A DNA stretch of 64,000 nucleotides, from positions 24,427-88,426 of the forward strand of contig CAVYHV010000015.1 of NCBI GenBank assembly GCA_963768425.1, written 5' to 3'. Below, one piece after another: positions 4,128 through 32,464 of this stretch. The notes under the pieces are model-generated. The model was not told where the DNA came from. It worked only from the letters and a program-made list of their open reading frames with translations, and did not search any database. Both the position numbers and the translations under genes were made by a program. Source of the DNA: Candidatus Bathyarchaeota archaeon (lineage in GTDB: Archaea > Thermoproteota > Bathyarchaeia > Bathyarchaeales > Bathycorpusculaceae). Numbering within the stretch: position 1 is the first letter of the stretch; every line of letters starts with the position of its first letter.

Positions 4128-4201
4128 GCCGAGGTAGCTCAGCCTGGGAGAGCGCTCGGCTGAAGACCGAGTCGTCGCAGGTTCAAACCCTGCCCTCGGC
4201 A
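4128..4201 (+). tRNA. tRNA-Phe(GAA), no encoded CCA; left anchor of the island
   Basis: GCCGAGG/CCTCGGC acceptor, CTCGG-CTGAAGA-CCGAG anticodon arm, GCAGG-TTCAAAC-CCTGC T-arm. Confidence 0.95.
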
Positions 4202-4322
4202 CATTTTTGCTTATTTTCTGCTTGTTTCTTTCCAATTTCTTGGTTCTTCGCAAAGAAAGGGAAAAATACATTCGCTTTGGCTGTTCAAACCTCCAGGACC
4301 ATAATGTGGTCTGAACTCTGCG
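4192..4322 (+). repeat. conserved unit left arm, copy 1 (interrupted by IS1182; resumes at 5959 to about 5985)
   Basis: >90% identical by eye to 28055-28184 and clearly homologous to 19155-19306. Confidence 0.9.
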
Positions 4323-5958
4323 GAGACTGTGTGAAAAGTCTCTTTCTCTGCTGGCTATTTACCGTTAACCTTAAATCTAGACTAGCTTTAGAGCAACAGA
4401 AAGAGCTGAAAAGCCATGAGCGAACACGTAACAGGCCACCACAGAAATCAGTCAGTTCTCTTCCCAAACACCATCGACGATTACGTCGACAAGGAAAACC
4501 CAGTACGATTCATTGACGCTTTTATAGATAGCCTCAACTTAGAGAAGCTCGGATTCAAGCATTCAGTACTCGCAGACACAGGAAGACCATCTTATAATCC
4601 CTCAGACCTTCTCAAACTCTACGTTTACGGCTACCTCAACCAGGTGAGATCAAGCCGAAAATTGGAGAAAGAATGCCACCGCAACGTTGAGGTCATGTGG
4701 CTGATGAAAAAGCTAGCTCCGGACTTCAAAACCATCGCTGACTTCAGAAAAGACAACGTGGACTGCATCAAAGGCGTATTCAAAGAATTCGTTTACCTCT
4801 GCAGGAGCCTGGATCTTTACGGTGCTCAACTGGTAGCGATTGATGGCACCAAATTCAAAGCGGTAAACTCCAAGAGCAACAACCTCAACGAGAAAACAGT
4901 CGCTTTGAGGCTCAAACAAACAGAAGAAAAGATAGCAGAGTACCTCAAAGAAATGGACCAAAACGATACGGCTGATTCAGCTGAAGATGAAAGCGTCAAT
5001 GCCGATGAGCTCAAGGAGAAAATATGCAAGCTTGAAGAGGAAAAGCAACGATACGAGCAGATTCAAGACCAAATGAAGGCAACAGGCCAGAAGGAGGTTT
5101 CACTTGTGGATCCAGATAGCCGTTTGATGCGGGTAGACAGTCAAAGGCTTGAAGTCTGCTACAACATTCAGACATCTGTGGATGCGAAGCAGCATTTAAT
5201 CGTGGATTACGATGTCATCAATAATTCGACTGATCATCACCAGCTAGCGACCGATGCTAAGGCTGCAAAACAGATGCTTGGCGTTGATCAGCTGGAAGTT
5301 TTGAGTGACAAAGGATTCTATGTTGCAAATGACCTCGTTGAATGTGAGGAAGCTGGGATAACGGTGTTTATGCCGATTCCAGCTTTCAATCCTACTAAGA
5401 ATGTAGGGGTGCCGGAGCCCGAGTTTTGCTCTGACAAGTTTGTCTATATGTTGAGCGAGATGCTTATGTTTGTCCTGGCGGGAGTGAGTTGGAGCTTTTG
5501 AGGCGTAGTTATCGAGGAAAAGAGCAATGTTGGGGTGGTCTTTATGGGACGAAATTCTGTCTGTCTTGTTCTTTCAGGAGTAGGTGCACTAGAAACAAGC
5601 GTGGCAGACGCATGTTCAGGCGGAGTATCAAGATGCTGTGGATAGGTTAAGGGCGAGAGTTAGCAGTTCAGATGGAAGAGCGAAGTTCGTTTGAGGCGTG
5701 AAATAGCGGAGCATCCGTTTGGAACTATTAAGCGAGCGTTCAATCAGGGTTATTTGCTTTTGAAAGGGTTACGGAAGGTTAAGGGAGAAGTCGGATTTAC
5801 TATGCTGGCTTATAACATGAGAAGGGCGATCAATATTCTTGGAGTTGGCACGTTAATGGCTTTGATTAAGGCGTAAAAAAGATAGTAAAGAACAAACGCA
5901 TCTAAGAGCTTGGGTGGGCAAATAATGAGGCTTTAGCTATGAGTTTTGACACAGTCTG
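4323..5958 (+). mobile_element. IS1182-family insertion sequence, 1636 bp
   Basis: TIRs GAGACTGTGTGAAAAGT / revcomp CAGACTGTGTCAAAACT; 4-bp TSD TGCG (4319-4322, 5959-5962); empty site seen at 28174-28191. Confidence 0.9.
4416..5876 (+). pseudogene. IS1182 transposase, split by about three 1-nt deletions (near 5447, 5620, 5683)
   Basis: GRPSYNPSDLLKLYVYGY, APDFKTIADFR, AIDGTKFKA, DKG, EHPFGTIK motifs; reading frames rejoin with single-base additions. Confidence 0.85.
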
Positions 5959-6061
5959 TGCGGGGTTCAAAACCCATAGAGACCTGAACCGTTATGGCAC
6001 GAAAACTTTTGGATTCGACCCTAGCGCGAAGAGGCTTAGGAAAAAGCCTGCCCATTTTGCC

Positions 6062-6616
6062 TCAGAGTCCTAACTCAATCAATTTGAGCAAACTGCCGAT
6101 TTGTATAGCGTCACTTCCGGTCACCAATTGCGAAAACGTCGGTTTCGCATTCAAACCAATAGTGACCACCTTGCCACCTCCATAAGAGATAGTAACGGTT
6201 AATCCTTTGTCCCTCAATTCCTCAGCAACTTTTCTTGCTTGGCTTAAGCTGCTCCACAATGATGCTCTGCCATTCCCCAACCCGCTTAGCACCTTCTTGA
6301 CGAAGTGTTTGTCGATTAAATCAAGGCTGAATTCTTTGTTTTCCGCCTTAAGTTGCAGAGTTTCCCGTCCATTTATCGTGACTGCTAGTTCGCCTTTCCT
6401 AAAAACGTGTCCCAGCAAATTCGGCAACTTCAGGTCCGAGCCAGGTTTTTTCTCTTTGACGATAGCGAGATCGAGGACAACGAAGCCATCGAGCTTGGTT
6501 TTCAATGTGCCCGCTTCAAGGGTTAGGTCGTGAAAGGTCACCTTAAAGTCGGATTCTTTTCCTGCAAGTTTGTCCATGAATTTCATGAATGTGGTGCTGA
6601 AATTTTCTGTTGCCAC
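6062..6616 (-). CDS. hypothetical protein
   Basis: 184-aa ORF with natural composition; function not recognised. Confidence 0.6.
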   Translation of the reverse strand: MATENFSTTFMKFMDKLAGKESDFKVTFHDLTLEAGTLKTKLDGFVVLDLAIVKEKKPGSDLKLPNLLGHVFRKGELAVTINGRETLQLKAENKEFSLDLIDKHFVKKVLSGLGNGRASLWSSLSQARKVAEELRDKGLTVTISYGGGKVVTIGLNAKPTFSQLVTGSDAIQIGSLLKLIELGL

Positions 6617-7155
6617 AGCCGAACACTATCTAAGCAAGATGTTAAAGTAACAATAAATTAAATTTATGAATCGTCCATTCATGAAAATCATGGCATGGGT
6701 AAGATACAGATTGTTCCAGCAATGCGTTTGTTATAGCAATCAATGAGATTAATGGTTTAGCTATGTCGTTTTCAGAGATATATTTCAGTCTATAGCAACA
6801 AAGTCAAAAGACAATACGCTGCAGTTCAATTTCTTCGGAGATATTTCAGATTTTTCTTCTATTAATTAAGCTTTACAAGGACATTCTCAAGGCGACTTCT
6901 TCTGAAAATACTCAGCTAAATCCCGCATTCGAACCAAAACAGAAATTGCTGCCTACAACAAACACTTTGCAACAAAGGCAGCGCCTTTCTAGGCATAAAT
7001 CTTATTCAAACCCACTATGTTTTATATTATTTCATCTTGATCATAAATTAAGTAACACAAAGGTTTTTTACGCCTTGTTTTTTGCGCCGTACTCGTCTTC
7101 AAGAATCAGCGCTCACTAGAAATTCTTCGATTAGAAAACAATGCGGGATGTCAAT

Positions 7156-7380
7156 TTAGAACATTCGCCCATTTCTTGTTTTGTTAACGTAATCTATCAA
7201 ACTGAATTCCAAAACGCCGCCGAAGCAGTTGGCTATCAACCATGTCCAAGCTCCAAAAGTGTTGAAGGCAAGCCAAAAAATAACGGTGCCTACCAGAAAT
7301 GTTATCGTGCCAACAAGATTATACTTAACGAATCGTAAAACCAAGTTACCTACCCTGTTGTGCAAAGCAAAATTGATCAT
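7156..7380 (-). CDS. GtrA-like small membrane protein
   Basis: RFVKYNLVG...WLIAN...FSL pattern; likely start at ATG 7380. Confidence 0.5.
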   Translation of the reverse strand: MINFALHNRVGNLVLRFVKYNLVGTITFLVGTVIFWLAFNTFGAWTWLIANCFGGVLEFSLIDYVNKTRNGRMF

Positions 7381-8107
7381 CCTTTTCTTAAAGCTCAAAC
7401 GGTCGCACAACACATTGCTGTCGCATATATTAACTGTCACGATATATTACCAAGATAGTAATATATCAAAACCTAAACATAACCTTTTCAATGAGCGATG
7501 AAAACAACTGTTGTACACCTGGTCATTAAAATATAGACAAGATAAGCATTCTGAAGGAAAAAAACCATCAAATTTAACTGAAAAGTGCAAAAGCTAGGCA
7601 GTAGTCGCGTTGTACAATAAGATGAGACTAAACCTTTCTCGGCGTCTTCGTAGTGGTGAATTACCCCCGCGAGGATTTTGTGTTTGGATTCGTTGATGCA
7701 ACGGTTGGTTCAATTGAATTATCAATTGTGGCAAAATTTTTTTTCGTTGATCTTTAGGTTTTCTTGCCTACTTTTTACAGATGTTACTACGTCCAAGAAC
7801 ATGGCTAAACGATCACCCATGCCCAACTCTTAAGATGAGTATCTAAACTTCCCACCGACCATCTTATCACAGCCATCGATAGGTATAGTGTACGAGCACT
7901 AACGCTGCAGAAAAAAGTTGTGAAAAGAAATGGAAAAAATCGGCGTTATCCACGCCAAATCAACGGTCATTCATAACGAATACTAAATAATTTTAGGCTG
8001 CAAATGAAGTGGGCTACTTTTTTTGAGTTTCGGCATAATACTGACGCTAAATACATAAGACATAAGGGCTTCTTAAATTCAACGATTCCATAGATGACTC
8101 TGGAAAA

Positions 8108-8473
8108 ATGGGGCCCAAGAACGAACATATAACTTTGTGGATATTGGATCAAGACCGCAAAGAAAATCGAGAACGCAGAAAAGCAGAAAATGCTCAAAAA
8201 AATCAGATGGATGCTGTTGAAGGCAAAAACCATTGTTCCAAGTGCAAGAAGACTTTTGACGAACCCAAGATAGTCCTAGTTTGCCCTCATTGCTTGAGCA
8301 AAATAGAAGAAAAAGGCAAAACAGGCTGCCAATACTGGTTGGGTTTTCTGAACCAAAAAGAAAAGACCGAATCAATCCCACAGGAATGTGTTGAATGTCC
8401 AAGAGTTTTGGAGTGCATGCTTAGCCAAGAAAAATCTGCAAGCGCAGTTTCAGAAATTCGTAAATGGTACTGA
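8108..8473 (+). CDS. Cys-rich zinc-finger protein
   Basis: CSKC, CPHC, GCQYWLG and CVEC...C motifs. Confidence 0.65.
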   Translation: MGPKNEHITLWILDQDRKENRERRKAENAQKNQMDAVEGKNHCSKCKKTFDEPKIVLVCPHCLSKIEEKGKTGCQYWLGFLNQKEKTESIPQECVECPRVLECMLSQEKSASAVSEIRKWY

Positions 8474-8519
8474 GTTGCCAAGATTTGCAGATATCCGGCT
8501 CATTTACGCCTTTGCTGTT

Positions 8520-8723
8520 TTACCCAGATGCCACCGAAACTACGCGACCCATGAGATCTTCGTCTTGCTTTAAGTTTAGATACTTATCGATACCTTTAAT
8601 CTCTAAAGACAACTCTTCTCTACCGTGCCCTAACATCTCAACAGCCGCATTGTTAACGTCAATAAAGTTTTCTTAAAGATCGATGACCCATATGGATTCA
8701 TCCATGCCTTTAATCAGCTTCTT
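8520..8723 (-). pseudogene. degenerate extra PAS domain downstream of the TrmB-PAS gene stop
   Basis: translates as KLIKGMDESIWVIDL*ENFIDVNNAAVEMLG..., paralogous to NLVNGMTETIWIIDFEGNFIDVNDAAVKTLG inside the gene; frameshift plus in-frame stop. Confidence 0.65.
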
Positions 8724-11700
8724 TTAAGTTGCCTCACTTTCTCTTAAAGCTGCCTCTTTTTTCTTGTCGACTGAAATATCTCTTGCAGTGATTAGCGAAA
8801 GTTCTTCATTATTAGTTTCAAGCAAAGAAACGGAAAATAGAACGGGAAAAATTTCCCCATTTTTTCGCCTAAAATATGATTCTTTGTTTCTTACTTTTCC
8901 TTCTTTGTTTAACATCAAAGTAATCCTTTCTCTATCAGAAGGGTCCGCCCAAATGTTAAGCTCTAAAGCACACTTACCAATAACTTCTTGCCTGGAGTAG
9001 CCAAACATTTCCAAAAAAATATCATTACACTCAACTATTAAGGAACCTCTTAATGTAGTAATCATAAAAGCATCTAGACTGGTTGAAAATGCTGTCCTAA
9101 GCCTTTCTTCACTTTCAATTAACGCTTGTTCAGCCTTCTTGCGTTCAGTGGTGTTTCGGGCTATGCTTAGAACTGCCCGCTTTCCACCGTATGTTATGAG
9201 ACTTGAGCTAATCTCCACCGGAATTTCTTGTCCATCCTTAGTAACGTGAATTGTTTCAAAAACCCGATTCCTAACAGAAGGAATTTCACCAAGCCTTTTT
9301 CTAATTTGCTCTGGGCTCATGATCTTATCAATGCCGCTAACACCAATACGCATCAACTCTTCTTTAGAATAGCCCAATGTTTTAACCGCGGCATCATTCA
9401 CATCAATAAAGTTTCCCTCAAAATCAATAATCCAGATAGTTTCAGTCATGCCGTTAACTAAATTTCTATAATTTGCCTCGCTCTCCGCTAAGGCTTCTTC
9501 AGTTTTTTTGCGTGTGGTAATGTCGTGAGCGACAACGAAAGCGCAATCAAGTTCGTTGTTTGTGTATTTCAATTTCGCATTCAAGGTTGCCCAAATGGAA
9601 CGACCGTCTTTCGTTATTACTCCAAATTCAACGTTTGGGTCTATTTTTTCTCCAGTTATGCTTTTTCTAAATATTTCTCGGAAGCGTTCTTTGCTCTCAG
9701 CGTTAAGAAGGTCAAAAGGACTCATAGAAAGCAATTCTTTTTCCGAGTAACCCGACAGAGCGCACATATAGTCGTTAACACTTTTGAACTGGAGACTCTT
9801 GCAGTCGATTTCATAGATAGCGGCTGGAGCGTATTCTGCAAGATGGCTGTATTTTTCGTCTTCTTCCCGCAGCTTCTCCTCTGCCAAAGTTTTGGACAAA
9901 GCCAAAGCCAAATGGTCAGCTATCCTTTCCCACATCTGAATAGCTTCGAGAGAAAACATGTTCTTCCGCTTACTATTTAACTGAAGCAACCCCAATCGAT
10001 TGTTACCGACATGCAACGCAAGCAACGCAACCGACTCATAGCCTTCTCCGTTGCAACGGTTGCGAGTTCGAATTTGACGGTCCGCATCAGATGTTGTAGC
10101 AAGAAGCCGCGCGGTATCGTTTGACCAAAAGCTTCCCTTTTCAGTAAAGAATTTTTTTGAAGGGTCGAATCTTCCGCACAAAATGTTTTCACACATGCAT
10201 TCGATAACTGGGTCACCTTTCAAGTCTCGAATTAAATTGCCAGCAGCGTCCCTAGCGACAAAGTTTGTCCTCTAAGTAAGACGTGTTCAGGAGGAAAGCC
10301 TCTAGTTTCATAATAAGGATAATCATCTCCGTCTTTGAGCCTAATTCCTACCCCCTCGCAACCTGATTGTTTTTGGAAGAACTCAAGGGAAGCAGTAATC
10401 AAATCCCTGGTACCAAAGTTGCATTAGTGATTTTCAGAAACTGGATCATTATCTCGCGTTCAGTTTCAGCTTTTTTGCGTTCAGTTATATCGATGATTGA
10501 TCCTTCCAGTATTCCCTCTTCAGGATAAAGCTTCAAAGCCGTAAGACAGAGTCTAGCTTCGCTTTGCTTGTTTAGCATTTTGCATTCGAAATCTTCGACA
10601 AAGCCATTGGCTTTTAGTCGGTTAACCATGTCTATTCTTTCAACTGGGTTAGCCCAAAGAGTAAGCGATGATTTACCTATTATTTCGTTCCGCCTGCGGC
10701 CAAAAATGCGGAGAAACTTTTCGTTGCAGTCAAGAATTTCAGATCCATCTAACTTGGTCCTAAACATTCCTGCTTCGGAGTTTTCGAAAATACTCCTATA
10801 CTTTACTTCACTTTTCCTCAGTCCTTCCTCAGCTTTCTTGCGTTCAGTAATGTCATTCGCGTAAATGTTTACGTAGCCTTCGACAATGACAGGTGCAAAT
10901 AACATCGAAAATACTTTTGCGCCATAGATCTGTTCACGCTCAATTTTAATGTTGGATTTTAGACAGTCAGCAACAAGTTGATTTATGTCGTCAGGTGCAC
11001 GTTCGCCAACTTTGATATTCCACTCGTTCAACAATAAAAGTGCAGCTGCATTTCCATAAAGAATTGTGCCTTCTCCTTTAATACGAAGCACGGGCAAAGG
11101 ATTCTCAGAAGGAAACTTTGATAAACTTTTGATTTTGTCTTCTTGTCGCTTAAGTTCAGTTATATCATCAAAGATTGAAACGAAATACCCGTTTTCTGGG
11201 CTATAGGTAAGTATGGAAAAACATCTTTCTGAACCTTGAAAGCAATATTCGAACCTTGCTGATTTACCATGGGAGATTATTGGCCAATATGTTGCAAGTA
11301 AATCTGTAAGATTCTTCGTGATTCCGCCAGGGAAAACATTTGTGCCTCGTTCTCCTAAGACGTTTTTCTCTATTCCAGTGATTCTTTTAAATGCAAGGTT
11401 TGTTTCCAATATAATAAAATCGATTGGTTTTCTATCTAATCCAAAAATTATTTTGTTGTAAGAAAAACCGCTATTTAGGTTAGCAAATAAGTAATCAAAT
11501 TGTCGTCGATCCCGTCTAAACGCCTTATTTTGGGGAATACTCGCCAAGAACCACGCTGCATTAAAATAGCTTTGAGCTAATTCTACCAAGCAAGGATTAT
11601 TTGAAAAAACCGCATCACTCTTGCTTTCCACAAGTTTCATTGAGGTCGTGAGAAGAATTTCTTTGTCATCGTATAGTCTAAGCCAAACTTCAAGTGGGGT

Positions 11701-12315
11701 AATAGCGTATCGGTGTTCAAAATTGGGGAATCTTTCTAATGTTTGGAGTACCCTCGAATGATTTGGTCCATGAAATTCTTCTGTGATAATTCGTATGGTT
11801 ACCTTTCGTTTCAAAGCGCTTTGGATGCTAAAGTTGTTAATGGCGATCCATCTGAGCAATCTTTCCAAAGAAACCATAATACAAATTTTGTCTTTGGCGT
11901 TTTCAAGATGTTTTTGTAGCTCAAGTTCAAGTGCGTCTCCTCGGATTAAAACGAGTTGATTGCTTTCGGAGTCAGATTTTGTATTTTCCTTCTCTTTCAG
12001 TTTCTCAATTATTTTGTTTGCTTTTTTGTCCAGATCTATGCTTTCTTTGGTTCTTCTCAGCATCAAAATGCCAACGGCGTCATTTATGGACAGAGGCTTA
12101 TACTTGGTTGGAACAGTAACTATTTTTTCAACTAGTCCAGCTTCTAGTAAGTCAATAATTGCTCTATAAGTGTCGGGGCGGGCTACTTTTGAAACATTAG
12201 CGATTTCGCTAATAGATCCCAAGCCTATCCGAAGGAGACCAAGATACGACTTTGCTTGTGTACCACTAAGACCGAGATCAACTAATGTTTTGATGTTTTC
12301 ATCAAGGGCACTCAA
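8724..12315 (-). CDS. TrmB-type HTH + PLD-like + multi-PAS + GAF sensor-regulator; ORFs 10399-12315 and 8724-10223 joined by about three 1-nt insertions
   Basis: N-terminal LVDLGLSGTQAKSYLGL wHTH; repeated DITERKKAE PAS ends; gap 10224-10420 decodes to GAF text (SLEFFQKQSGCEGVGIRLKDGDDYPYYETRGFP). Confidence 0.8.
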
Positions 12316-12514
12316 GATGCATTGCCTTCTACTCTTTGCAAATTGAGCAGTATTGTTCTGTTCTAGCGTATGTAGTCTTTAAGCTTTGGCGAATTCCACC
12401 CGATTTCGCTTAATTCAATTCAAAACTTTCAGAACAATATCCTGTTGGATGACCTTCCACCAACAACGGCTTATTACCTAAACAGTCTCTATAGACTACG
12501 GGGATGATTGTATT

Positions 12515-13015
12515 ATGGCTCTAGACGATTTGGATAGAAAAATAATACAATATCTAAGCTCCGGAACAAACTCCTATCAAGAACTTGCCCGAACATGCAA
12601 CGTTACAAGGAATACCATTTACCGGAGAGTTGCTGCCCTTGAAAAAGAAGGAATAATTAAGAATACCCTTCACTGCATCGTAAACTTGGAACAAATGGAC
12701 CTCGTTCCTGTAACGATTGGAGTAAGAATTCATCAAAGTGACCAAGATAGAGCGATCAATCTGCTGACAACAAACAGGAACGTGAGATTTCTGTGGCGAA
12801 CCTATGGAGAGCACAACCTGATGCTCGTTGCTTTTTGTCCCAAAGGCAAAGAAGGCGAAATAATCCAAGATATCAAAGCTGCCCTTGAAGAACTAAACTC
12901 AGAACACATATGTGTATCTGTTGGTTACGTGTGGGAAAAGATGAGCTATTCGCCGTTTGATGACCAAACGGAATTTGAAACGAAAATAGCGCAGATAATA
13001 GAAAATAGATATTGA
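12515..13015 (+). CDS. Lrp/AsnC family transcriptional regulator
   Basis: LDDLDRKII...ELAR...TIYRRV HTH plus RAM domain (TYGEHNL). Confidence 0.9.
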   Translation: MALDDLDRKIIQYLSSGTNSYQELARTCNVTRNTIYRRVAALEKEGIIKNTLHCIVNLEQMDLVPVTIGVRIHQSDQDRAINLLTTNRNVRFLWRTYGEHNLMLVAFCPKGKEGEIIQDIKAALEELNSEHICVSVGYVWEKMSYSPFDDQTEFETKIAQIIENRY

Positions 13016-13110
13016 TATTTACCAAAAACAGTAATCAGGCGTAACTATGTTTGTTTGATTCGAGAATGAAAGGAACAAATCTGTTTATTTGCTGAAATCG
13101 TAAGAGAAAC

Positions 13111-16397: not shown

Positions 16398-16419
16398 CAA
16401 GTTAAGGTAGTGTTTAACT

Positions 16420-19588: not shown

Positions 19589-19672
19589 GCCCATTCTTTT
19601 ATCGCTCCATTTTCTCATGGTTTTAAAGGACTAAAAAAAGGAAAAAAGGAATTTTGTGTTGGTTTTTGTTGT

Positions 19673-22554: not shown

Positions 22555-22572
22555 TCAGGTAACAGTGTTTGC

Positions 22573-23538: not shown

Positions 23539-23670
23539 TAAATTGAAAAGGAATTGTCATTTTCTTGAATAAAAACACTATTAATAGCAGATTATGGTTC
23601 GAATCCCTCCTCAGTGTGAACTTAATAAAAACAAGGAAAACAAATGATTTTTTTGAAAAAATTGGGGTTT

Positions 23671-23776
23671 GCTGAGGCTCTGGAAACTAAGGAAGAAATT
23701 TTCTTTTTTAAGGAGAAAAAGAAAATGAACATTCTTCAAGTGCAGCTATTTCGAACATGACCAGAGCCTTCTCAGC
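23671..23776. repeat. about 105-bp inverted-repeat-bounded element, copy B
   Basis: GCTGAGGCTCTGG...CCAGAGCCTTCTCAGC. Confidence 0.8.
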
Positions 23777-23851
23777 CATTTATCTTTTCATCTCTTCTTG
23801 TTTTTTGGGGACTAAAAAAAGGGAAAGGGAGTTGTGTTAAGCACTTTTAAT

Positions 23852-26800
23852 TTATGGATGTTTTCTTGTGACAAGGAGTGCTATTACTGCGATTCCCACG
23901 ATTATGACGATGATGATTGCGATACCTACGTATTCGATTGTTGATTGGGTTGCAATTCCGGTAAGAGGTGTCGCTGTTGGTGCTGCTGTTGCTGCGGGAG
24001 AGCCGGCATAGACGAAAGTTTCAGCCGCCGATGAGTAGTAGCCATTAGTTCCTGCAAAAGTTGCAAATATAGTGTAGTTACCTGTTATGCTTGGAGTCCA
24101 TGTTAATCTGTAGCTGCCGCTCTGATCAGTCGTGGCGTAACCTATGGGGTAGTGGTTTCCATTAGAGTCTAAAACAGCCAATTGCACTTGAACACCTGTG
24201 AAGTTAGTTGGTTCAGCCTGATCCTGGTAGACGTAGCCCATCCATGATTGCATGCTTGCGTCAGATGCACATGGAACCCCGTGTGGAAAGTCTGCTGCCT
24301 GTTGACTTTGGGTCGTGCCAGATGATATGTCCATCACTGTGCCGGTGATCGTTACCGGTGTAGCTGTCGTCACTCCTAGGTTAGGTGCTGAAACAGTGGT
24401 AGCACTGGGGCCTCTGCCAATACTGTATATTTGGTTGACGTAGCCGTTCATGCAGGTTATGTATCCATCCGCCGTAGCCCATTGTGGAGCAGCACTGGAA
24501 GTCCACTCGCTCGGGTATTCTGAGAGTGCCCATATTTGTTGTCCTGTTGTGGCGTTAACAGCGGTTGCTTCAGCGCCTTTGTACAGCGGGTCAGGAATGG
24601 TGTGCTCATCAGTAGCCAAGTATACTACTCCGTTAGCAATGGATTGTATCTGGGTTGGGTAAACTCCGTATGGTGTGTTTAAGCCAGCATAAGTGCTGTT
24701 ACCTTCACCACCGTTGCCCCAAGTATAGACTAGTTGTCCAGTTACGTCGTTGAAGCAGTAGAGTATTCCTCCGAATCCATCGACATAGAGGTTCCCGTAA
24801 GCAACTACTCCTGGAGGGGGTTGCCCTGGGTCGTAATAGTAATTAAAGGCGGCTGCGGTTGGAGTTGTCCATAGTAGTTGGCCCGTGTTTAGACTGTATC
24901 CTTGGAATTGTATAGTTTCCAGCGAATAAAGTGTGAAGACGCCGGTTTGGAAGTCGACTGCACTCTGTAAGAGAGTGACGTTGCCTGCTGGCGGATTATA
25001 CGTCTTCATCCACAGGATTGAACCGATTGCACCGACAGATGAGTTAAGGTTGACGGCGAAGTATGTGTAAGGAAGTTGCGGGTATCCTGCTTTAGTCGCG
25101 CCGAAACCAACGGGTAGAGAGCCGTTTCTGCAAAGCATTACATCGCCATATTTTACTGCGAGTATCGACACGGGGTTTGATCCAGTTGGCGGTTGCACTA
25201 TTTGTCCTGTGACGGCGCTGGGTGTTGCAGGTGGCGGCGGCATGGTGTTAAGCCATGGTAGTGAAATGTTCCAGTCATAAGTTGTTAATGAGCCGGAATT
25301 GATGCTTTTTATGGGAGCAGTGGTTCCAGGTGCAGCGGCATTGGAGTTAAGAGGTATGTTTGCATTCACCGTAATTGAGGAGCCGCGTGGAACGAATGTT
25401 GTAAGGCCAGTTTGGTAGATAACCCATTTCACCTACAGCTGGAATAGGGATCGTTGGAAGAAGGACTCCGTTGGATGCATTTACTGGGTCTGGTGATAAA
25501 CTTCCACCGCCGGTGTACGGATTAATGTCGTACTGCCAAAGTTTAGACATGTTCCATTCAGACATGTACCAATTTGGATTAGCAGCAGTGCCAATGTTGG
25601 TTATGACGTACTTTAATTCTTCACCGCTCGGACCCAAGATGTTATTGCTTACAACAGTATTCGGGAAGGCTACAACGCTTGGGGGGGATGTAGCTATAGG
25701 TACGACGTATGAAGTGCTTGCGGGAAGATTAGTTACGTTGAACAGCGAGTCTCCTGTGTATGCATCATAAAGCTGCCACTGGCCTGTAATTGAGTTTGGT
25801 GAGACTAAGATTGGCGGGTAAACACCATGTTGGTCGGGGTCCCAGAGGCTGTAGATGTAGCCGAATGAAATTGGGGGTATGTTTGGGTTACTCCAGAGTT
25901 GTTGTCCTGTGCGGAGGTTAATTGCTACGGTGGGTCCGCTGCCGGGGCCAGTGAATGACGCTGGTTGTGTGTAGAATAGTACTCCGTCCATTATTATCGG
26001 ATTGCTGAATCTTGGCTGATATGCAGATCCTTCGTAATAGGATGCTCCCTGAACAGCACCGCTGGGATTTGAGCCGCCGGCTGAAAACATGTTGCCTCCA
26101 ACCACTCCTCCAAATTGAAGCGGCAAAGTCCACATAAGATGAGAAGTTAAAGGTCCTACGGCATCTGTATGATACAGTGCTGCGTTTGCAGTGGCGCCAT
26201 ATCCTTCTGGCGGTCCCGAACCTGAGCCTAGCCAGTTTGACGAAAGTGGCCACCAGTTAGAGTCTGCACCGTATACTGGTTCTTGCCAGTAGCTTGTCGG
26301 TAGGGGTTCACTAGTTATAGCGCTGGAAATTGGTGCTGTTTGCACGGTGAGCGTTGTTGTTGCATTGCTAGGAAGATATGTATCGTTCACCATCGGTGAT
26401 TGGGCGTAGCCGTTGCCATTTGCGCCGTACACTTGTCCTGGATAATAAAAGCTGAAAGTGTAGGTACCAACAGCGGTAGGAGTAAAGGATGTTTCCTGAT
26501 TTGATGTTGTATCAGAGATGATTGGAAAAGTCGTTGTTGTTTTTGCCCCATCCGGTGCAGTTACGGTAAGCTGATAGCCTAGGAATCTATAGTTGTTTGA
26601 AAGTAAGGCTGCGCTCGCTGTGTAACCGTTCGTTCCGACAGCGGCAGTTGTTCCACCGGGTGCTCCGTAAACTTCAGTAAGCCACATGTAAACGTTTATT
26701 GTTTGACCGACACCTATAGGATTAGGTTCGGCAACAATGTAGGCTTGTGTTGGAATTTGCCACACAGGTGTATGTGCGTTAACGCTTGGTATTATCATTA

Positions 26801-26873
26801 GTGAAGCTGTCATCGAAAATGTTAAAAGTACAGCAATAAGAATAGCCATTGTTTTGCTTTTCAGTTTTTTCAT
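23852..26873 (-). CDS. beta-propeller surface protein paralog 2, one frameshift near 25425
   Basis: ORFs 25347-26873 and 23852-25432 join on removing one G from a GGG run; colinear with paralogs 1 and 4. Confidence 0.85.
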
Positions 26874-27044
26874 TTTTTTCCCTGAATGGCTTATTTATCG
26901 ATCTCCTTATATGCCTTTGGTGCCTAACGCGAAAAAATGGACAAAACTATAGAAATCCAGTCTTTTGACTGAATATTTCTCGTCTTTAGCTAAAAAATGG
27001 GAAGCATTATCAAAAAAACAGGATAATTCAGTTTATGTAGCACC
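26874..27044. promoter_or_regulatory. second copy of the promoter block, with no Lrp gene behind it
   Basis: matches 22385-22554, then switches abruptly to unrelated sequence at 27045. Confidence 0.75.
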
Positions 27045-27300
27045 ATCTCCAGCTTTATCCCACATCTCAAGCTTCTCATATTTCATTGCCGCCTCCTCAT
27101 ATCGCCCAGCTCTTTCAAGATTTCTGGCTTCTTCCATTATACATTCTCGTGGCGGAGGCGGAGGGACTGATAAATCTGTTCAATCTTTTCTAAACTTTAT
27201 ACGGCAACGTGGACACCAAAAGACATCTGCGAAGGTATTGGTCGGATTTCGAAAGACGAGCTTTTGTTAAAATCATGGGGATATCTTGACGCCAGTTATT
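27033..27300 (-). pseudogene. remnant of a Zn-ribbon/TPR-like protein gene truncated at the promoter-block junction
   Basis: WCPRC...*...MEEARNLERAGRYEEAAMKYEKLEMWDKAG; internal stops; boundaries approximate. Confidence 0.45.
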
Positions 27301-27403
27301 ACCATTTAATTGAGCTGATTTTTGTGTAAATTATTCTGGTGTTCTATGGTAGAATTGAAATTTGCAAAAGACCTTTTAAGGTATATTTCGTAAGCTTGCC
27401 CAA

Positions 27404-27664
27404 ATGTTTCTTCAGGTTTTGGCTGCTGTAGTTCATAACCAATTTGAAGTCATTCACCCCTTCCAAGATGGCAACGGGAGAGTCGGGCGACTATTGCTAA
27501 ATAACATATTACTAAAACATAATCTGCCACCCTTAAACATCGAATTAAAAAATCGAGCCCAATACTTCGCCGCCCTACAAGCATACGAAAAAGAAAACAA
27601 AATACGCCCAACGTTGGAGCTCATGCTAAAAGAATACCATGCCCTCAAAAAAATCATCAAATAG
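27404..27664 (+). pseudogene. Fic-domain C-terminal fragment
   Basis: canonical HPFQDGNGRVGR motif with no N-terminal part upstream. Confidence 0.75.
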
Positions 27665-27694
27665 GTGACTACAAAAAACGGAAATGTAGTCACC
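27664..27694. terminator. perfect 10-bp stem-loop after the Fic fragment
   Basis: GGTGACTACA-11nt-TGTAGTCACC. Confidence 0.5.
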
Positions 27695-27709
27695 CAGAAT
27701 TCCTGGCGG

Positions 27710-27755
27710 CTGTTTGACGTGCAGAAAGTCGCTGGCCTGAATCTGGTCCGACCTA
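27710..27755 (+). other. degenerate 3' half of a tRNA-Val(GAC)-like gene
   Basis: CTGT-TTGACGT-GCAG, variable loop AAGTC, GCTGG-CCTGAAT-CTGGT, CCGACCT-A. Confidence 0.5.
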
Positions 27756-27841
27756 CTCCCGCGTAGAAATGCTCCATTTGACTGTTTTTAAAGTATTTTG
27801 TTATTCTTGCTCCTTTAGCTCTTTGTGGTTTGAACCCGACA

Positions 27842-27971
27842 GAGGCTGTGTAAAAACTCAAATCGAGTTCAAAAAATTGCCTCAAATGTGCATTGAAATT
27901 TTTTTTAGGCCAGCATTATTTGCATGAAGCCAGCAATTTTCTGAGATCAAGAATAGTTTTTACATAGTCTG
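27842..27971 (-). mobile_element. 130-bp MITE with IS1182-type ends, copy 1
   Basis: TIRs GAGGCTGTGTAAAAACT / AGTTTTTACATAGTCTG; TSD GACA (27838-27841, 27972-27975). Confidence 0.85.
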
Positions 27972-28027
27972 GACACGGGTCAAATCCCGCCCGACCCACT
28001 CCCAAGGCACACATTTAAGGTTCTAAC

Positions 28028-28065
28028 GACGGTTTAAACGACGGCTTCAAGTTAGCCCTCGGCAC
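28028..28065 (+). repeat. att-like site R2
   Basis: GACGGTTTAAACGACGGCTTCAAGTTAGCCCTCGGCAC. Confidence 0.9.
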
Positions 28066-28208
28066 ATTTTTGCTTATTTTCTGCTTGTTTCTTGGCAATT
28101 TCTTGTTTCTTCGCAAAGAAAGGAAAAAGTACATTCGCTTCGGCTGTTCAAACTCCCGGACCATAATGTGGTTTGAACTCTGCGGGGTTCAAAAACCAAT
28201 CGAGACCC
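28055..28208 (+). repeat. conserved unit left arm, copy 3 (contains the empty IS target hairpin)
   Basis: TGAACTC-TGCG-GGGTTCA at 28174-28191. Confidence 0.9.
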
Positions 28209-28291
28209 AAACCGCTTCAGGCTCGAATCCAATCATAAAATTCTCATCTTATTTGCCCTGATCCCTTGAGATAAATAAACATGAAGAAACT

Positions 28292-28742
28292 TCACTTGGC
28301 TTCGTCTGAAAAGAGTTGCTTTCCTTTTTCTGTGATTTCGATGGCACCTACTTGCTTGAAAATATTAACGTTGTCAGTAACGTTCCAGTATTCTGCGAGT
28401 TTGCCATTAACTATACGATAGATGTCAACAGCCTCAGCTCTTATCTTCTTTCCAGTAGGACTTAGTCCCATAAATTCGCCTTTTGTGGGTCCCAGTATAG
28501 GAAAGGCGAACCCACACCTTGTTCCCTTCAGCGATGATGTCTTCAATAGATTCATGCCAATCAGGAAATGCGTTAAGACCCATAATAAATAATTGTTTGA
28601 GACCTTCTCGACCGACATTCTTGGAGCGGTCGATATAATCTGGTGCCACAAAATCGTCTATTAATTTCAAATAGTCCACGTTTCGATTATTATAGGCTTC
28701 AATAAATCTGCGAACAATCGCTTTATTCTCTTCTAAAGACAA
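28292..28742 (-). CDS. SnoaL-like ester cyclase, one frameshift in an A-run near 28485
   Basis: LEENKAIVRRF...AFPDWHESIEDIIAEGNKVWVR..YTGTHK|GEFMGLSPTGKKI; likely TTG start at 28742. Confidence 0.85.
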
Positions 28743-28907
28743 AAAATCACCAGTAAATTCTATTCTCTTTTTGAGATTTAAGCGTGTTGTGAAGTGCAAG
28801 TTTTAGACTTTAGGGCTTATCCACTTCTTTGCAGTCTATCAAAGACTCCAAGAGTAACCGTTTCCCAACGTCATTTTTAGATACTTTTCTTGTCGCATTC
28901 AAATCTC

Positions 28908-29723
28908 TTAAGTAATATCAACACGTTTTGAAGACTCGGCACTATGATCAAGAAAAAGAGCTATTAAATTCAATGTGTTGTCAGTTATCAGCTCGCGCGA
29001 TAAACCACTTTTAATTCCCATTTGATTCAAAGTCGTTCGTCTTAATTCCATCTCAGAAAGCAGACCATTCATAAGCATAGTTACATATTGAACGATAATA
29101 CTTTCTTTCATATCATTCTTTATTGTTTTATCTTTCTTGCCTTTTCTAACTGCTTTTGACCAAAACTCACCATTTCTCAACATCTGAATAAAGAATTCAA
29201 TGAAATGGGGCTCTTCAAAATATTTCTCAAATTCAAAATCTTCTAATGGCGAGAGGTCTTCAGTCAACTTGTTCAGGGTAGACTGTCCTACTTTGTTGAC
29301 GATAAGTTCAATTATGGATTCAGGCATTAAGTTCATGTTTTTAATGTGCTCAAAAGTGTCATTGGTGATCTTTAGTACTATTGGGTTGTCGATGCCATCT
29401 TTGAGTGTTTTTGCGCAAAGGAATAGAACCTGTTCTTTTCCGGATACGTCAGTTGGTAGAGTGGCAATCATGGTTTCATTGAGTTCTTTGAAGACTTTTT
29501 TTCCGACGGCAAAAAAAACATCGTTTTTGTTTTTAAAATAATTATATATTGTTGTGCGACTTACAAACGCTGCTTCGGCAATATCTTCTAGAAGGACCTC
29601 ATTTATAGGTTTTTTAGAGTAAAATTTTTCCGCTACGGCGAGAATTTCTTCTTTTGTTCTCTCTTTCTTTCTGTCGCGCAATTGTTTTTTTTCTTTGGAG
29701 GCATTGTTTTGAGTTAGTTTCAT
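28908..29723 (-). CDS. TetR/AcrR family regulator
   Basis: RTKEEILAVAEKF...LEDIAEAAFVSRTTIYNYFKNK. Confidence 0.9.
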   Translation of the reverse strand: MKLTQNNASKEKKQLRDRKKERTKEEILAVAEKFYSKKPINEVLLEDIAEAAFVSRTTIYNYFKNKNDVFFAVGKKVFKELNETMIATLPTDVSGKEQVLFLCAKTLKDGIDNPIVLKITNDTFEHIKNMNLMPESIIELIVNKVGQSTLNKLTEDLSPLEDFEFEKYFEEPHFIEFFIQMLRNGEFWSKAVRKGKKDKTIKNDMKESIIVQYVTMLMNGLLSEMELRRTTLNQMGIKSGLSRELITDNTLNLIALFLDHSAESSKRVDIT

Positions 29724-29780
29724 GACGTGAAAACATAATTGGCATCGCTGTTTATAAATATTTTACAGCTAATACATAAT

Positions 29781-29795
29781 TTTACACCGTGTAAA
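29781..29795. promoter_or_regulatory. candidate TetR operator
   Basis: perfect palindrome TTTACAC-C-GTGTAAA in the divergent intergenic gap. Confidence 0.55.
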
Positions 29796-29832
29796 TATTT
29801 ATATGCGACGTGTACTATAGTAATTAAATGTC

Positions 29833-30543
29833 GTGTTTTGTATGTCAACTGAAGAAGAAAATTTTTTGAGCAAAGAAAAGAGCGTTTTGCGATGGAGCGG
29901 TCTGGCTGGTATTCTGGCTGGAGTCTTTTTTATTTGCACCATCGTCACGCTAATTAATTTTGGGAATTCGACAACAGCCAACGTTGCGGATTTGATCACA
30001 AAGTTTCCAGATCACAGAATGGACCTTGCGGTGGGAAATGTCTTCTACTTTTTGGTCAGCGTCTCGTTAGTTGGTCTCGCGCTTGGCCTGTATCAGGCTC
30101 TTCGAAGGGCGAGCATTGGACTCCCGCTCTTCGGGACTGTTCTATTCGTTCTAGGTCTAGGAGTAACCTTTATTGAAGATACTACGCAGATCGCTTTCGA
30201 CCCGATCTCCAAACTCTATAATGCTGCCGCAGCGACCTCCACGGACAAAGCTACACTCACCCTCATATGGCAGGCAACACAGGGTATGTTCAATCAGTTT
30301 GACGTCGGAGCAACACTCCTCCTCTCCACAGGGTTAATCGTTCTTGGAGCAGCCATGATCAGGGTACCAGCTTTTGGCAAAATCTTCGGCGGGCTAAGTA
30401 TTGCAATCGGAGCGGCTCAGATCGTAGGGATATCTTTCCTTTCAACCAATTCTGCCGCATACGCACCATTCGCCCTCCTAGCCTTCTTAATCTTCCCAGT
30501 CGTCTTCGGATGGAAACTCTACAGTCTATCAAGGAAGCCATAA
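29833..30543 (+). CDS. DUF4386-like multi-pass membrane protein
   Basis: LRWSGLAGILAG start; about six hydrophobic helices. Confidence 0.65.
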   Translation: MFCMSTEEENFLSKEKSVLRWSGLAGILAGVFFICTIVTLINFGNSTTANVADLITKFPDHRMDLAVGNVFYFLVSVSLVGLALGLYQALRRASIGLPLFGTVLFVLGLGVTFIEDTTQIAFDPISKLYNAAAATSTDKATLTLIWQATQGMFNQFDVGATLLLSTGLIVLGAAMIRVPAFGKIFGGLSIAIGAAQIVGISFLSTNSAAYAPFALLAFLIFPVVFGWKLYSLSRKP

Positions 30544-30725
30544 GAAATCTTGGAATTGTTCTTGGGGGACTCCTTTTACGGAGTCTTTCAACACAATAAA
30601 CTGTGTTGGAATCCCAACGGGCCGCCATAAGAATTTTTTAAGAAGAATTGAGGATTCGCTTAGCGCGCGCTAAAGTGTTTTCAAACGCGCTTGACGCTTT
30701 TAGGCGATTGGACCTGACCCCATTT

Positions 30726-30855
30726 GAGACTGTGTAAAAACTATTTTTAATTTCAGAAAATTGCTGGTTTTATCTAAATAATGTTGGTTTAAAAAAGGAT
30801 TCAAAACATATTTGAAGCAATTTTTTGGGCTTGATTTGAGTTTTTACACAGCCTG
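30726..30855 (+). mobile_element. 130-bp MITE with IS1182-type ends, copy 2 (opposite orientation to copy 1)
   Basis: TSD ATTT (30722-30725, 30856-30859); 107/130 ungapped identity to the reverse complement of copy 1 by manual count. Confidence 0.85.
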
Positions 30856-30900
30856 ATTTGGGGTCAAATCCCACCGGACTCGCACCTTTAAAGTTCTAGC

Positions 30901-30938
30901 GACGGTTTAAACGACGGCTTCAAGCTTGCCCTCGGCAC
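30901..30938 (+). repeat. att-like site R3
   Basis: GACGGTTTAAACGACGGCTTCAAGCTTGCCCTCGGCAC. Confidence 0.9.
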
Positions 30939-31098
30939 TTTTGAGTTCAATAGAAGCTTGTTTTAACAATAAAGTCACACTTTGGAATAATTTGCCTACA
31001 ACTCAGGGATTCGTGAAATATTGAAAATGAGATGAATAGAGTCAAATTGTAGAAATCTTTTTACTTCTTGTTGCTCATAAGGACATAGGCGACTAAAA

Positions 31099-31308
31099 GT
31101 GACCCTAACAATCAATAGCGATGAACTGAAAACTGTCCTTGATAAACTAGATACGGTGAAACTTGAACTTTTACGATTGAGAGCAATGTTGTTGCCAGAA
31201 GAGGAGGCTACGGAACAAGAAAAGAAAGAGATCAAAAAAGCGAAACAAGAACTATCAAAAGGGTCAAGGATAAACCTTAAAGAGTTTATTGATGAACTGG
31301 GCTGCTGA
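31099..31308 (+). CDS. archaeal RelB-like antitoxin
   Basis: 69 aa, acidic LPEEEATEQEKKEI...INLKEF tail, directly upstream of relE. Confidence 0.7.
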   Translation: MTLTINSDELKTVLDKLDTVKLELLRLRAMLLPEEEATEQEKKEIKKAKQELSKGSRINLKEFIDELGC

Positions 31309-31315
31309 CTTCTAA

Positions 31316-31577
31316 TTGTTTGACATCACTGTTGCTCAACGAGCCCAGAAGAGTCCAAGAAGCTGCCTGAACACCTCAAACGCAGAATTGTCGAACTTCT
31401 TTTAATCTTACGGGAAAACCCAGTCCCAGCAGAATACTATGATGTAAAGAAACTGAAGGGACTGGCAGACACATATAGAATTAGAATCGGTGATTTCAGA
31501 ATTATCTATGAAATTTCTTGGGACAAAGCGGCGGTGAATATATTATATATTGGGTCCGGGAAAACGCGTATTCTTGA
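31316..31577 (+). CDS. relE: RelE/ParE toxin (missed by the ORF track; about two 1-nt indels)
   Basis: LPEHLKRRIVELL...DVKKLKGLADTYRIRIGDFRIIYEI; a repaired end reads IG.RENAYS*. Confidence 0.8.
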
Positions 31578-31580
31578 ATC

Positions 31581-31619
31581 GACGGTTTAAACGACGACAT
31601 GAAGCTAGTCCCTCGGCAC
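31581..31619 (+). repeat. att-like site R4 (followed by CA, giving GGCACCA)
   Basis: GACGGTTTAAACGACGACATGAAGCTAGTCCCTCGGCAC. Confidence 0.9.
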
Positions 31620-31839
31620 CAAATATCCTTAATTTAAGGTTATTTTGCAATATTGGGCATAAATTACAACATTATATGCGCTCTGCAAGCAGGGTAATGA
31701 GATATGAAAGAGGGAACGTTTCTACTCATAGACTTTACCGGAAAAGCAAAATATTGATTGAAGCAAACAATACTGCTTCACGATTGGAGGTAACAGATTG
31801 ATTTCGGGGACAAGGGGTCTCCAGATATTTTTATAAATG

Positions 31840-32109
31840 TTAGAGCATTTTTGAAAAGTCATCGTACACTTTGCTTCTATGGCCGACAAAAAGAATGACT
31901 ACTTGGTTTTTGTTTTGGTCTATCTCGTAGATAACTCTGTAGTCGCCTACTCGTAGACTCCAGAAATCTGATTGTTTTAGGGGTTTTCCTGTTTTGTCGG
32001 GGTTTTCACGCAGTTGCTTTGCGCTCTCGACTATTCTTGTTCGGACGTGTTTTTCAGTTTTTTGGAGTTCTTTTGCTGCTTTAGGGTGCAGAAGTACTTT
32101 GAAAGTCAC
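31840..32109 (-). CDS. relE: RelE/ParE toxin
   Basis: FKVLLHPKAAKEL...GKPLKQSDFWSLRVGDYRVIYEID...VGHRSKVY. Confidence 0.9.
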   Translation of the reverse strand: MTFKVLLHPKAAKELQKTEKHVRTRIVESAKQLRENPDKTGKPLKQSDFWSLRVGDYRVIYEIDQNKNQVVILFVGHRSKVYDDFSKML

Positions 32110-32327
32110 TCTAGTTCCTCTATAGGAATGAGGGATTCTGGGCGTTGTTTTGCTTCTTCGCTACGTTCCATGAGTGTGTTGAAGAAGTTGCATGTTTTTT
32201 CGCGTTCTTGATAGTAGGTGATGATTGATTTTATGGCGTCGCTTCGGTTTTTGAAGCGGCCTTCTGCTACCCATCCATCTATTTCCTCGAGGGTTTTTTG
32301 TGGAAGACGTAGTTGTACTTGAGCCAA
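32106..32327 (-). CDS. ribbon-helix-helix antitoxin
   Basis: QVQLRLPQKTLEEIDGWVAEGRFKNRSDAIK; 4-bp overlap with relE. Confidence 0.85.
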   Translation of the reverse strand: MAQVQLRLPQKTLEEIDGWVAEGRFKNRSDAIKSIITYYQEREKTCNFFNTLMERSEEAKQRPESLIPIEELE

Positions 32328-32426
32328 ATATGTCGCCGTAAACAGTACTGTTTACAACTCACTTAAACGTTTCCTAAACAACCATCCGAGTCCCGACCCA
32401 CTCTGTCTTGCGGATAATGGTGCAAC

Positions 32427-32464
32427 GAAGGTTTAAACGACGACATGAAGCTAGCCCTCTGCAC
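32427..32464 (+). repeat. att-like site R5, right boundary of the island (followed by CA, giving GCACCA)
   Basis: GAAGGTTTAAACGACGACATGAAGCTAGCCCTCTGCAC. Confidence 0.85.

Follow-up and report, generated by a model that had tools for sequence, protein, structure and literature searches.

The window analyzed here is a stretch of 64,000 nucleotides (nt) from a 127.6-kb contig (accession no. CAVYHV010000015.1) of a Candidatus Bathyarchaeota archaeon (assembly GCA_963768425.1; designated G000 below), a metagenome-assembled genome (MAG) of 33 contigs and 91% completeness belonging to the Bathyarchaeia of peat and soil. Between its tRNA-Phe gene and the nitroreductase-like gene that is the usual neighbor of that tRNA lie 32 kb of accessory genes, organized in six units that are parted by copies of the tRNA 3' end (Table 1). 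Five of these units share one 42-nt end site, and none of the five encodes a recombinase. A preliminary description of this DNA, made from the letters alone, had placed five same-strand sites after tRNA-Phe, each composed of a non-tRNA arm and a copy of the tRNA end. This was confirmed: the arm 16-mer GACGGTTTAAACGACG occurs five times (at positions 19128, 28028, 30901, 31581, and 32427, always on the plus strand and with at most one mismatch) against 0.02 copies expected by chance, five copies were reached in none of 100 shuffles, and 12 to 13 nt past each arm stands CCCTCGGCAC, the last bases of tRNA-Phe. Two dimensions had to be revised. The sites, previously given as 38 to 39 bp, extend over 42 nt when information is measured across 139 unique copies, and the array does not end at position 32464, since a sixth, degenerate site (R6) bounds a sixth unit that comes from a different, integrase-bearing family. 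We refer to sites R1 to R5 as type II and to R6 as type I. R6 combines the 3'-terminal part of tRNA-Phe starting at the T-loop (about 21 nt, 17 of 21 positions matching) with an arm of the kind typical of the integrase-bearing tRNA-Phe elements of the genus; it aligns with the attR sites of those elements, and unit 6 is therefore interpreted as the remnant of one of them. At the left ends of the units, a homologous segment of about 150 bp (arm A) follows the core at the tRNA, at R1, and at R2, where the copies are 89 to 93% identical.

Table 1. Features at the tRNA-Phe locus, in window coordinates
Feature	Position	Strand	Remarks
tRNA-Val	3685-3761	-	ARAGORN and Rfam
tRNA-Phe(GAA)	4128-4202	+	ARAGORN and Rfam; last 11 nt (4192-4202) are the core common to all sites; no encoded CCA
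Unit 1	4203-19165		14.96 kb; left arm A at 4203-4322 and 5956-5989
IS1182-family element	4323-5955	+	Splits arm A of unit 1; transposase at 4416-5501 (DUF772 and DDE)
Site R1	19124-19165	+	42-nt type II site, arm and 11-nt tRNA-Phe core
Unit 2	19166-28065		8.90 kb; arm A at 19166-19310
Site R2	28024-28065	+	Type II site
Unit 3	28066-30938		2.87 kb; arm A at 28066-28212
Site R3	30897-30938	+	Type II site
Unit 4	30939-31619	+	0.68 kb; lone toxin-antitoxin pair
Site R4	31577-31619	+	Extra T between arm and core; followed by CCA and arm B
Unit 5	31620-32464	-	0.85 kb; arm B, ParE toxin 31840-32109, RHH antitoxin 32106-32327 (minus strand)
Site R5	32423-32464	+	One arm mismatch, one core mismatch (G>T); followed by CCA
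Unit 6	32465-36490		4.0 kb; PQQ-like/Ig-like surface protein 33544-36213 (minus strand); right bound is the older type I site
Site R6	36425-36490 (about)	+	Degenerate type I attR, different type from R1-R5
Nitroreductase-like gene	36595-37148	+	Conserved right-hand chromosomal neighbor of tRNA-Phe

The cargo of the units ranges from a single operon to a sizable gene cluster. According to Pfam, unit 1 encodes PAS sensor kinases, a TrmB-PAS regulator, an HTH regulator, a Rieske protein, and an IPT/TIG protein. Unit 2 encodes two paralogous PQQ-like beta-propeller surface proteins, the second of which is split into two overlapping open reading frames (ORFs), together with a double AsnC-type regulator and a Fic fragment (27404-27664), and unit 3 encodes a SnoaL-like protein, a TetR regulator, and a DUF4386 membrane protein. 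In unit 4, an antitoxin candidate (31099-31308) precedes a ParE/RelE toxin (31324-31590) whose stop codon sits in the TTTAAA of the R4 arm, a detail that the preliminary description had missed. The accompanying statement that the cargo is unrelated from unit to unit stands in part: the PQQ-like/Ig-like surface genes form a set of four paralogs (19673-22393 and 23852-26873 in unit 2, 33544-36213 in unit 6, and about 54171-57147 beyond the array) with conserved 3'-flanking segments (64 to 83% identical), and the remaining unit contents do differ. Two copies of a miniature inverted-repeat transposable element (MITE)-like sequence, mutually inverted and 82% identical over 142 nt, lie at about 27842-27971 in unit 2 and about 30726-30868 in unit 3, i.e., about 50 bp upstream of R2 and R3, respectively.

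The type II site proved to be the most constant part of the system. A profile search over all fetched sequence recovered 139 to 141 nonidentical copies, almost all of them in Bathyarchaeia, and across the 139 unique ones the information exceeds 1.4 bits only between positions -42 and -2 from the core end and is about zero on either side. The consensus is A.CGACGG TTTAAA CGACGG .. T.AAGCTA, then R-CCC-NNN-GCAC; in other words, the right arm holds two phased AACGACGG repeats around TTTAAA (AACGACGG-TTT-AAACGACGG), then a CAAGCTA box, and then the 11-nt core. Arm A, on its side of the core, holds 11-bp GCTTR repeats. The repeats in the arms are direct, not inverted, and folding of the DNA gave z-scores of -0.3 to +1.0 against shuffles (five sites and one on the opposite strand), i.e., no sign of a hairpin or an inverted repeat at the site; the description of these sites as non-integron thus holds in that they are not attC. 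A tRNA-like minihelix or T-arm within the arm was considered and rejected because most variants disrupt the GGCT/AGCC pairing it requires and because the base preceding CCC is part of the core that is identical to the tRNA. What follows the site on the downstream side varies: of the 139 copies, 18 are followed by left arm A, 21 by arm B, 12 by arm C, 8 by arm F, 10 by the left ends of integrase-bearing elements, and 70 by diverse sequences.

The phyletic spread of the site is narrow. The arm pattern matched 51 stretches in 185,579 species (one genome each), 48 of which are labeled Bathyarchaeia and come from peat, bog, and soil; it gave 87 matches in JGI metagenome contigs and none in viral contigs. 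Within the genus, the site or arm A was matched in 26 of 81 species genomes, and the 16-nt arm motif was found in none of 16 genomes from other families of the order. Two more of the 51, with a CCGGCCGCAC core, come from MAG contigs labeled Methanobacteriota and Hadarchaeota (L095 and L099), the latter with two type II-like sites 1.3 kb apart; either the site family extends past Bathyarchaeia or these contigs are misbinned.

The cores of the sites identify their targets. They correspond to the 3' ends of tRNA-Phe, tRNA-Leu(CAG/TAG), or tRNA-Ser(CGA) variants, and the central triplet of the core varies by array. The locus had been proposed as a platform at one tRNA, which is too narrow, as the same site type occurs at tRNA-Phe, tRNA-Leu, and tRNA-Ser(CGA); a random scatter of the motif over the genomes, which would have spoken against the proposal, was not what we found, as copies away from tRNA-Phe are tied to other tRNAs with matching cores. 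In G000, 4 of the 34 detected tRNAs end in CCCNNNGCAC, namely, those for Phe, Leu(TAG), Leu(GAG), and Ser(CGA), and all four lack an encoded CCA and have a unit-type arm directly after them. Those for Phe, Ser, and Leu(TAG) additionally have a type II or degenerate type II site downstream; the tRNA-Leu(GAG) gene lies 1.9 kb from a contig end. One of these arrangements (contig C24, 5965-6509; L194) consists of an intron-containing tRNA-Ser(CGA), an "empty" unit of 423 bp, and a type II site.

Comparison of the tRNA-Phe locus across relatives, on which the preliminary description had made its case depend, revealed both empty and alternative alleles, with content and order differing between species. 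In two genomes (G091, L037; G089, L044), the tRNA-Phe gene, which ends in GCACCA, stands 70 to 71 bp from the nitroreductase-like gene; this empty allele is precise to the tRNA end. The corresponding distance is 32.4 kb in G000 and between 0.3 and 18 kb in other species. In three species (L032, L041, and L046), the tRNA is followed at once by an element encoding an integrase of about 400 to 450 amino acids (aa), the 3' end of whose gene faces the tRNA, and in two of these, as well as in G055, the right boundary is a type I attR with about 21 nt of tRNA and a very different arm. As had been suggested, the locus is laid out as expected from repeated site-specific insertion at the 3' end of a tRNA.

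Individual units recur in other species at levels of identity well above those of their surroundings. A unit next to tRNA-Phe in G002 (L017, 9379-10093) matches unit 4 with 90.4% identity over 732 nt. Copies of unit 5 that are 92 to 94% identical occur at other array positions in G060, G045, G022, and G080, and the unit with both of its sites is 91% identical in L094; in the same comparison genomes, the nitroreductase-like gene is 70 to 75% and the 43- to 48-kb region 64 to 67% identical. The fifth unit here, it is the last in G045, where it adjoins the nitroreductase-like gene, and follows a degraded integrase in G022. Further cases include a unit 1-like unit after tRNA-Phe in G095 (L024), a unit in a tRNA-Leu array of G084 (L020) that is 81% identical to the SnoaL part of unit 3, and, on metagenome contig L180, a unit 6-like stretch (95% identical) that follows a type II site whose upstream unit is another one. 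Clustering of the flanks of 68 sites likewise showed one right end joined to different downstream partners. Near-identical units with variable neighbors and positions are difficult to account for unless entire units have recently moved horizontally.

We then turn to the enzyme. The integrase screens consisted of Pfam searches and a five-member integrase panel. No integrase had been seen in the 64 kb, and this holds for the whole 127.6-kb contig, which has no PF00589 match. The characterization of the units as recombinase-less also holds for them as a class. The complete units, running from a site or tRNA to a site, number 28 and measure 235 bp to 15 kb; a Pfam scan covered 96 ORFs of at least 110 aa in 27 of them (leaving out the 423-bp unit on contig C24), and the families with at least two ORFs among the matches listed (the 25 commonest) are all cargo, a count that a single PF00589 match could escape. 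They include alcohol dehydrogenases, PAS kinases, DUF4386, HTH regulators, flavodoxins, SnoaL, SDRs, and an ABC ATPase. In a tblastn search with the five integrases, 2 of 141 sites had an int84-like gene in the 8 kb upstream of them, one of these genes being degraded and the other not tRNA linked; int84-like genes near sites otherwise lie on the downstream side, where they open the next, different element. Unbiased clustering of the 1,461 ORFs within 8 kb of sites yielded no recombinase-like family, the large clusters being cargo or insertion sequences (IS).

Elsewhere in G000, seven PF00589 matches were recovered: an integrase on contig C14, two short paralogs on C30, a 454-aa integrase on C28, one IS91-associated protein, and two fragments. 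No obvious XerA was recognized among the seven in this incomplete MAG, and the genome yielded no serine recombinase and no Cas1. The C14 integrase (453 aa, with a Zn ribbon) belongs to an element of about 25 kb (260.3-285.6 kb; L192 covers its left end) at an intron-containing tRNA ending in CCCCCGGCACCA, with a type I-like attR 25 kb away. It is 60% identical to the integrase adjoining the tRNA-Leu array in G084, and its family reaches up to 11 copies per genome in the genus. Two further integrases were set aside as candidates: one on contig C65 of G084, which is part of an element located at a different tRNA and on the other strand, and one lying 7 kb upstream of a site (L128), which is not tRNA linked. 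On C30 (about 143.4 to 145 kb, at the contig end), a tyrosine recombinase is followed by the N terminus of an IS91-type Zn-binding transposase; this stretch looks, by eye, unusually rich in G+C for G000 and may be bacterial contamination or a recent transfer.

The explanation that we favor, with a probability of roughly 0.6, is that units 1 to 5 are nonautonomous att-flanked units that accreted at tRNA 3' ends and were moved by a tyrosine recombinase acting in trans. Such an enzyme is the likeliest one because a tRNA end identical to the 11-nt core is targeted and because the phased direct repeats, present in both the right arm and arm A, resemble the arm-type sites of a complex attP. The ancestral state would have been a tRNA-Phe gene directly upstream of the nitroreductase-like gene. 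An integrase-bearing element of the common family of the genus would first have entered the tRNA 3' end and decayed to unit 6 and R6, and five nonautonomous units would later have inserted serially, using as target either the restored end of the tRNA or a site already in place. Each would have carried the 42-nt recombination site at its right end and one of the recurrent arms (A, B, C, or F) at its left; upon circularization, the joined right arm, core, and left arm would recombine with the CCC-NNN-GCAC end of a tRNA or with a resident site, and each insertion would regenerate the tRNA and shift the older units distally. The enzyme would be supplied from elsewhere, by another integrated element or an unbinned episome, and such exchange may continue today. 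The units would thereby bring in accessory genes such as those for sensor kinases, regulators, surface proteins, redox enzymes, and transporters, and the smallest ones, with only a ParE/RelE toxin-antitoxin (TA) pair, may stabilize the array.

Several observations weigh against this explanation. The 42-nt site could not be assigned to any recombinase, the set of 139 to 141 sites yielded no autonomous element that carries the 42-nt arm, no circular contig (i.e., no contig with a terminal overlap) was recovered, and all of the genomes compared are MAGs. Two candidate helpers failed. Integrases of the int84 (Zn-ribbon) type occur in 65 of 81 genomes regardless of the site, so that their phyletic pattern is uninformative, and G012, which is 95% complete, has sites and no int84-type integrase at an E value of ≤1e-30. 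The 454-aa integrase on C28, which stands beside a truncated arm, was rejected as the dedicated enzyme because its only close homolog is in G084, where there is no arm. Finally, some cores do not match the tRNA they adjoin: Phe-type cores occur inside tRNA-Leu(CAG) arrays of G012 (contig C12, L014) and G002 (contig C4, L016), and a GTG core lies 423 bp from the tRNA-Ser(CGA) on contig C24 of G000, whose own triplet, GCA, pairs correctly with the 5' acceptor strand. A strictly homology-dependent model does not predict these mismatches. There are two possible ways in which they could have come about: the right arm may bring the triplet along, the crossover falling within or past GCAC, or arrays may swap segments. 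As a separate observation, the Leu and Phe arrays of G002 lie about 403 kb apart in inverted orientation on one contig, and recombination from site to site between them may also rearrange chromosomes.

A more ambitious proposal, which we put forward only tentatively, is that these loci constitute a dedicated archaeal gene-capture platform that originated independently of integrons and has no autonomous parent, its recombinase, whether domesticated, host encoded, or episomal, never being linked to a cassette. Its double-stranded 42-nt site might, with equal reserve, be retargeted through the interchangeable triplet to any tRNA ending in CCC-NNN-GCAC. If this were the case, the ends of tRNA-Phe, tRNA-Leu, and tRNA-Ser would be genus-wide exchange points for cassettes from a single operon to 15 kb, with the TA cassettes as stabilizers.

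It is improbable, though the most serious of the dissenting explanations, that the units are passive fossils, i.e., once-autonomous tRNA-integrating elements that decayed and lost their integrases, leaving a graveyard in which nothing moves today. There are documented archaeal and bacterial islands in which the integrase was lost after tandem integration (PMC8371274; PMC5704250; tycheposon islands), unit 6 with R6 is exactly such a remnant, degraded integrase fragments adjoin some sites in relatives, and broken cargo is present in the window itself, in the Fic fragment, the split propeller gene, and the IS and MITE insertions. Decay of this kind is difficult to reconcile with the type II units, in none of whose 28 complete members the screens described above showed an intact or degraded integrase and at whose sites an upstream integrase gene within 8 kb is as rare as described above (2 of 141). 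Moreover, the attR of the genus's integrase-bearing elements differs in its arm and overlaps the tRNA over a greater length, the 42-nt site hardly varies between unrelated flanks, and units 4 and 5 are 90 to 94% identical across species whose flanking genes are only 64 to 75% identical.

We consider it quite unlikely that the repeated site is a regulatory or RNA element (a promoter with a TTTAAA box, a terminator, or a tRNA-like 3' module) and that the arrays grow by duplication or homologous recombination. TTTAAA does resemble an archaeal TATA box, and the repeated arm A of about 150 bp could support homologous exchange; however, the site has neither an Rfam match nor a fold signal, its core triplet follows the adjoining tRNA, the empty allele is precise to the tRNA end, and the unit contents are unrelated and are therefore not duplications. 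A true integron, with single-stranded folded attC-like sites and an IntI-like integrase beside the platform, is less likely still. The small, promoterless-looking cassettes with a conserved site at each 3' end, the TA-only cassettes, and the occasional mismatch between core and local tRNA, as if a short crossover point sufficed, are reminiscent of one. Yet the 127.6-kb contig has no tyrosine recombinase, the z-scores give no hairpin potential on either strand, the units reach 15 kb with genes on both strands and regulators of their own, and the anchor is a tRNA 3' end rather than an attI beside intI; membership of the array among the integrons is largely refuted. Least probable of all is a misjoining of MAG contigs at a short repeat, which the 33 contigs of this assembly and the ends of several relatives' contigs exactly at a site (L008, L022, and L024) might suggest and which is countered by arrays of two to four sites within 0.4- to 2.7-Mb contigs of independent MAGs (G045, G002, and G084) and by the recurrence of a unit with both of its sites in independent assemblies.

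Accretion of integrated units has precedents in several known systems, each of which differs from the present one. (i) Among relatives of the integrative and conjugative elements (ICEs) ICESt1 and ICESt3 of Streptococcus thermophilus, integrase-less att-flanked units termed cis-mobilizable elements (CIMEs) accrete site specifically with helpers (PMC5704250). Like units 1 to 5, CIMEs retain att sites, lack integration and transfer genes, and form tandem stacks where a conserved gene or tRNA has its 3' end; they are mobilized by the recombinase of another element, and in the proposed action in trans the array would resemble them as well. CIMEs share their att sites with a known autonomous ICE from whose decay they arise, whereas no such parent is identifiable among the 139 sites here, the host is archaeal, and one arm serves several tRNAs via a swapped core triplet. 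(ii) The tycheposons of Prochlorococcus form tRNA islands built by successive integrations, with partial tRNAs between elements (10.1101/2020.12.28.424599). There, too, older elements are displaced distally by newer ones and the cargo genes have ecological relevance, but tycheposons are defined by their own tyrosine recombinase and their integrase-less pieces are regarded as remnants, whereas absence of an integrase is the rule for the present site family. (iii) Archaeal tRNA elements with nonsplit (pNOB8-type) tyrosine integrases show tandem integration, integrase loss, and "gene capture" (PMC8371274). As in the array, a tRNA 3' end is targeted and duplicated as a direct repeat and elements stand in tandem, and unit 6 with R6 and the 25-kb element on C14 are ordinary members of this type; in contrast, units 1 to 5 lack an integrase, their arm is a different one that is far more conserved, and their tRNA overlap is 11 nt instead of about 21. 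When compared with islands of the Islander type, the array displays the direct repeat of the tRNA 3' end and the regenerated tRNA and lacks an integrase of its own beside the att site.

Two bacterial systems show a comparable logic with different enzymes or sites. In staphylococci, composite islands of staphylococcal cassette chromosome (SCC) and psi-SCC elements form at the 3' end of rlmH (orfX) as tandem units with short direct repeats and accessory cargo, and some psi-SCC units without a recombinase are excised in trans by Ccr proteins, which are serine recombinases. Their target is a protein gene at a single site in a bacterial host, and no such recombinase was found in G000. Chromosomal integrons, in which TA-only cassettes also occur, resemble the array in their promoter-poor cassettes with one conserved distal site, in having the recombinase outside the cassettes, and in the sharing of cassettes across species in different orders. 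Unlike them, the array has no intI and no folded attC, and it has a regenerated tRNA anchor, bidirectional units of many genes (up to 15 kb), and a site with arm-type direct repeats like those of a complex attP. Integrative mobile elements exploiting Xer recombination (IMEX) integrate at a dif-like site by means of host XerA or XerC/D; the target here is a tRNA end and no dif-like palindrome, and a host-encoded recombinase may still serve the array. A split integrase of the SSV type was sought at the reconstituted R1/R2 junctions, where no ORF of at least 60 aa crosses on either strand and in-frame stops flank the site; the arms, furthermore, differ by indels. A casposon was rejected in view of the lack of Cas1 and of left arms that are not the reverse complement of the right arm, and an IS or MITE nature of the units was rejected for want of terminal inverted repeats, the IS1182-family element and its MITEs being separate insertions within units.

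On the strength of these sequence comparisons, what appears to be new is the combination of a family of at least 139 sites without an autonomous member, a one-sided and near-invariant site, an interchangeable triplet, cassettes of a single TA operon, and an archaeal host. Bathyarchaeia are among the most abundant archaea of peat, soil, and sediment, and to our knowledge there is little in the literature on how their flexible genomes are assembled, the published work covering their viruses and proviruses and archaeal integrases generally. The locus is an exchange point defined at the level of sequence, with a 42-nt site, a target rule (CCC-NNN-GCAC), an empty allele, and cassettes that are near unchanged between species. 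Were a trans-acting recombinase to be involved, this would be an archaeal counterpart of the logic of CIMEs, psi-SCC elements, or integrons, in a compact system with a programmable core; on a conservative reading, too, the site is a precise marker with which accessory-gene flux in peatland archaea can be followed in metagenomes.

Some minor features complete the picture of the locus. At least five other genomes (L012, L015, L024, L025, and L027) have copies of the IS1182-family element (74 to 83% identical) no more than a few hundred base pairs from type II sites, which suggests that this element has a target preference for the junction regions. The nitroreductase-like gene is present in two frames (ORFs 36595-36792 and 36804-37148), owing to either a frameshift or an assembly error; the orthologs of relatives look intact. 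Upstream of tRNA-Phe lie a gene for a NERD/Mrr-like nuclease and small unknown ORFs. A permissive Rfam scan of the 27.7- to 32.7-kb region gave chance-level matches only, and at the gathering threshold the whole window yielded, beyond its two tRNAs, nothing more than an archaeal RNase P RNA gene (63699-64000; 180 bits), which is cut by the window end.

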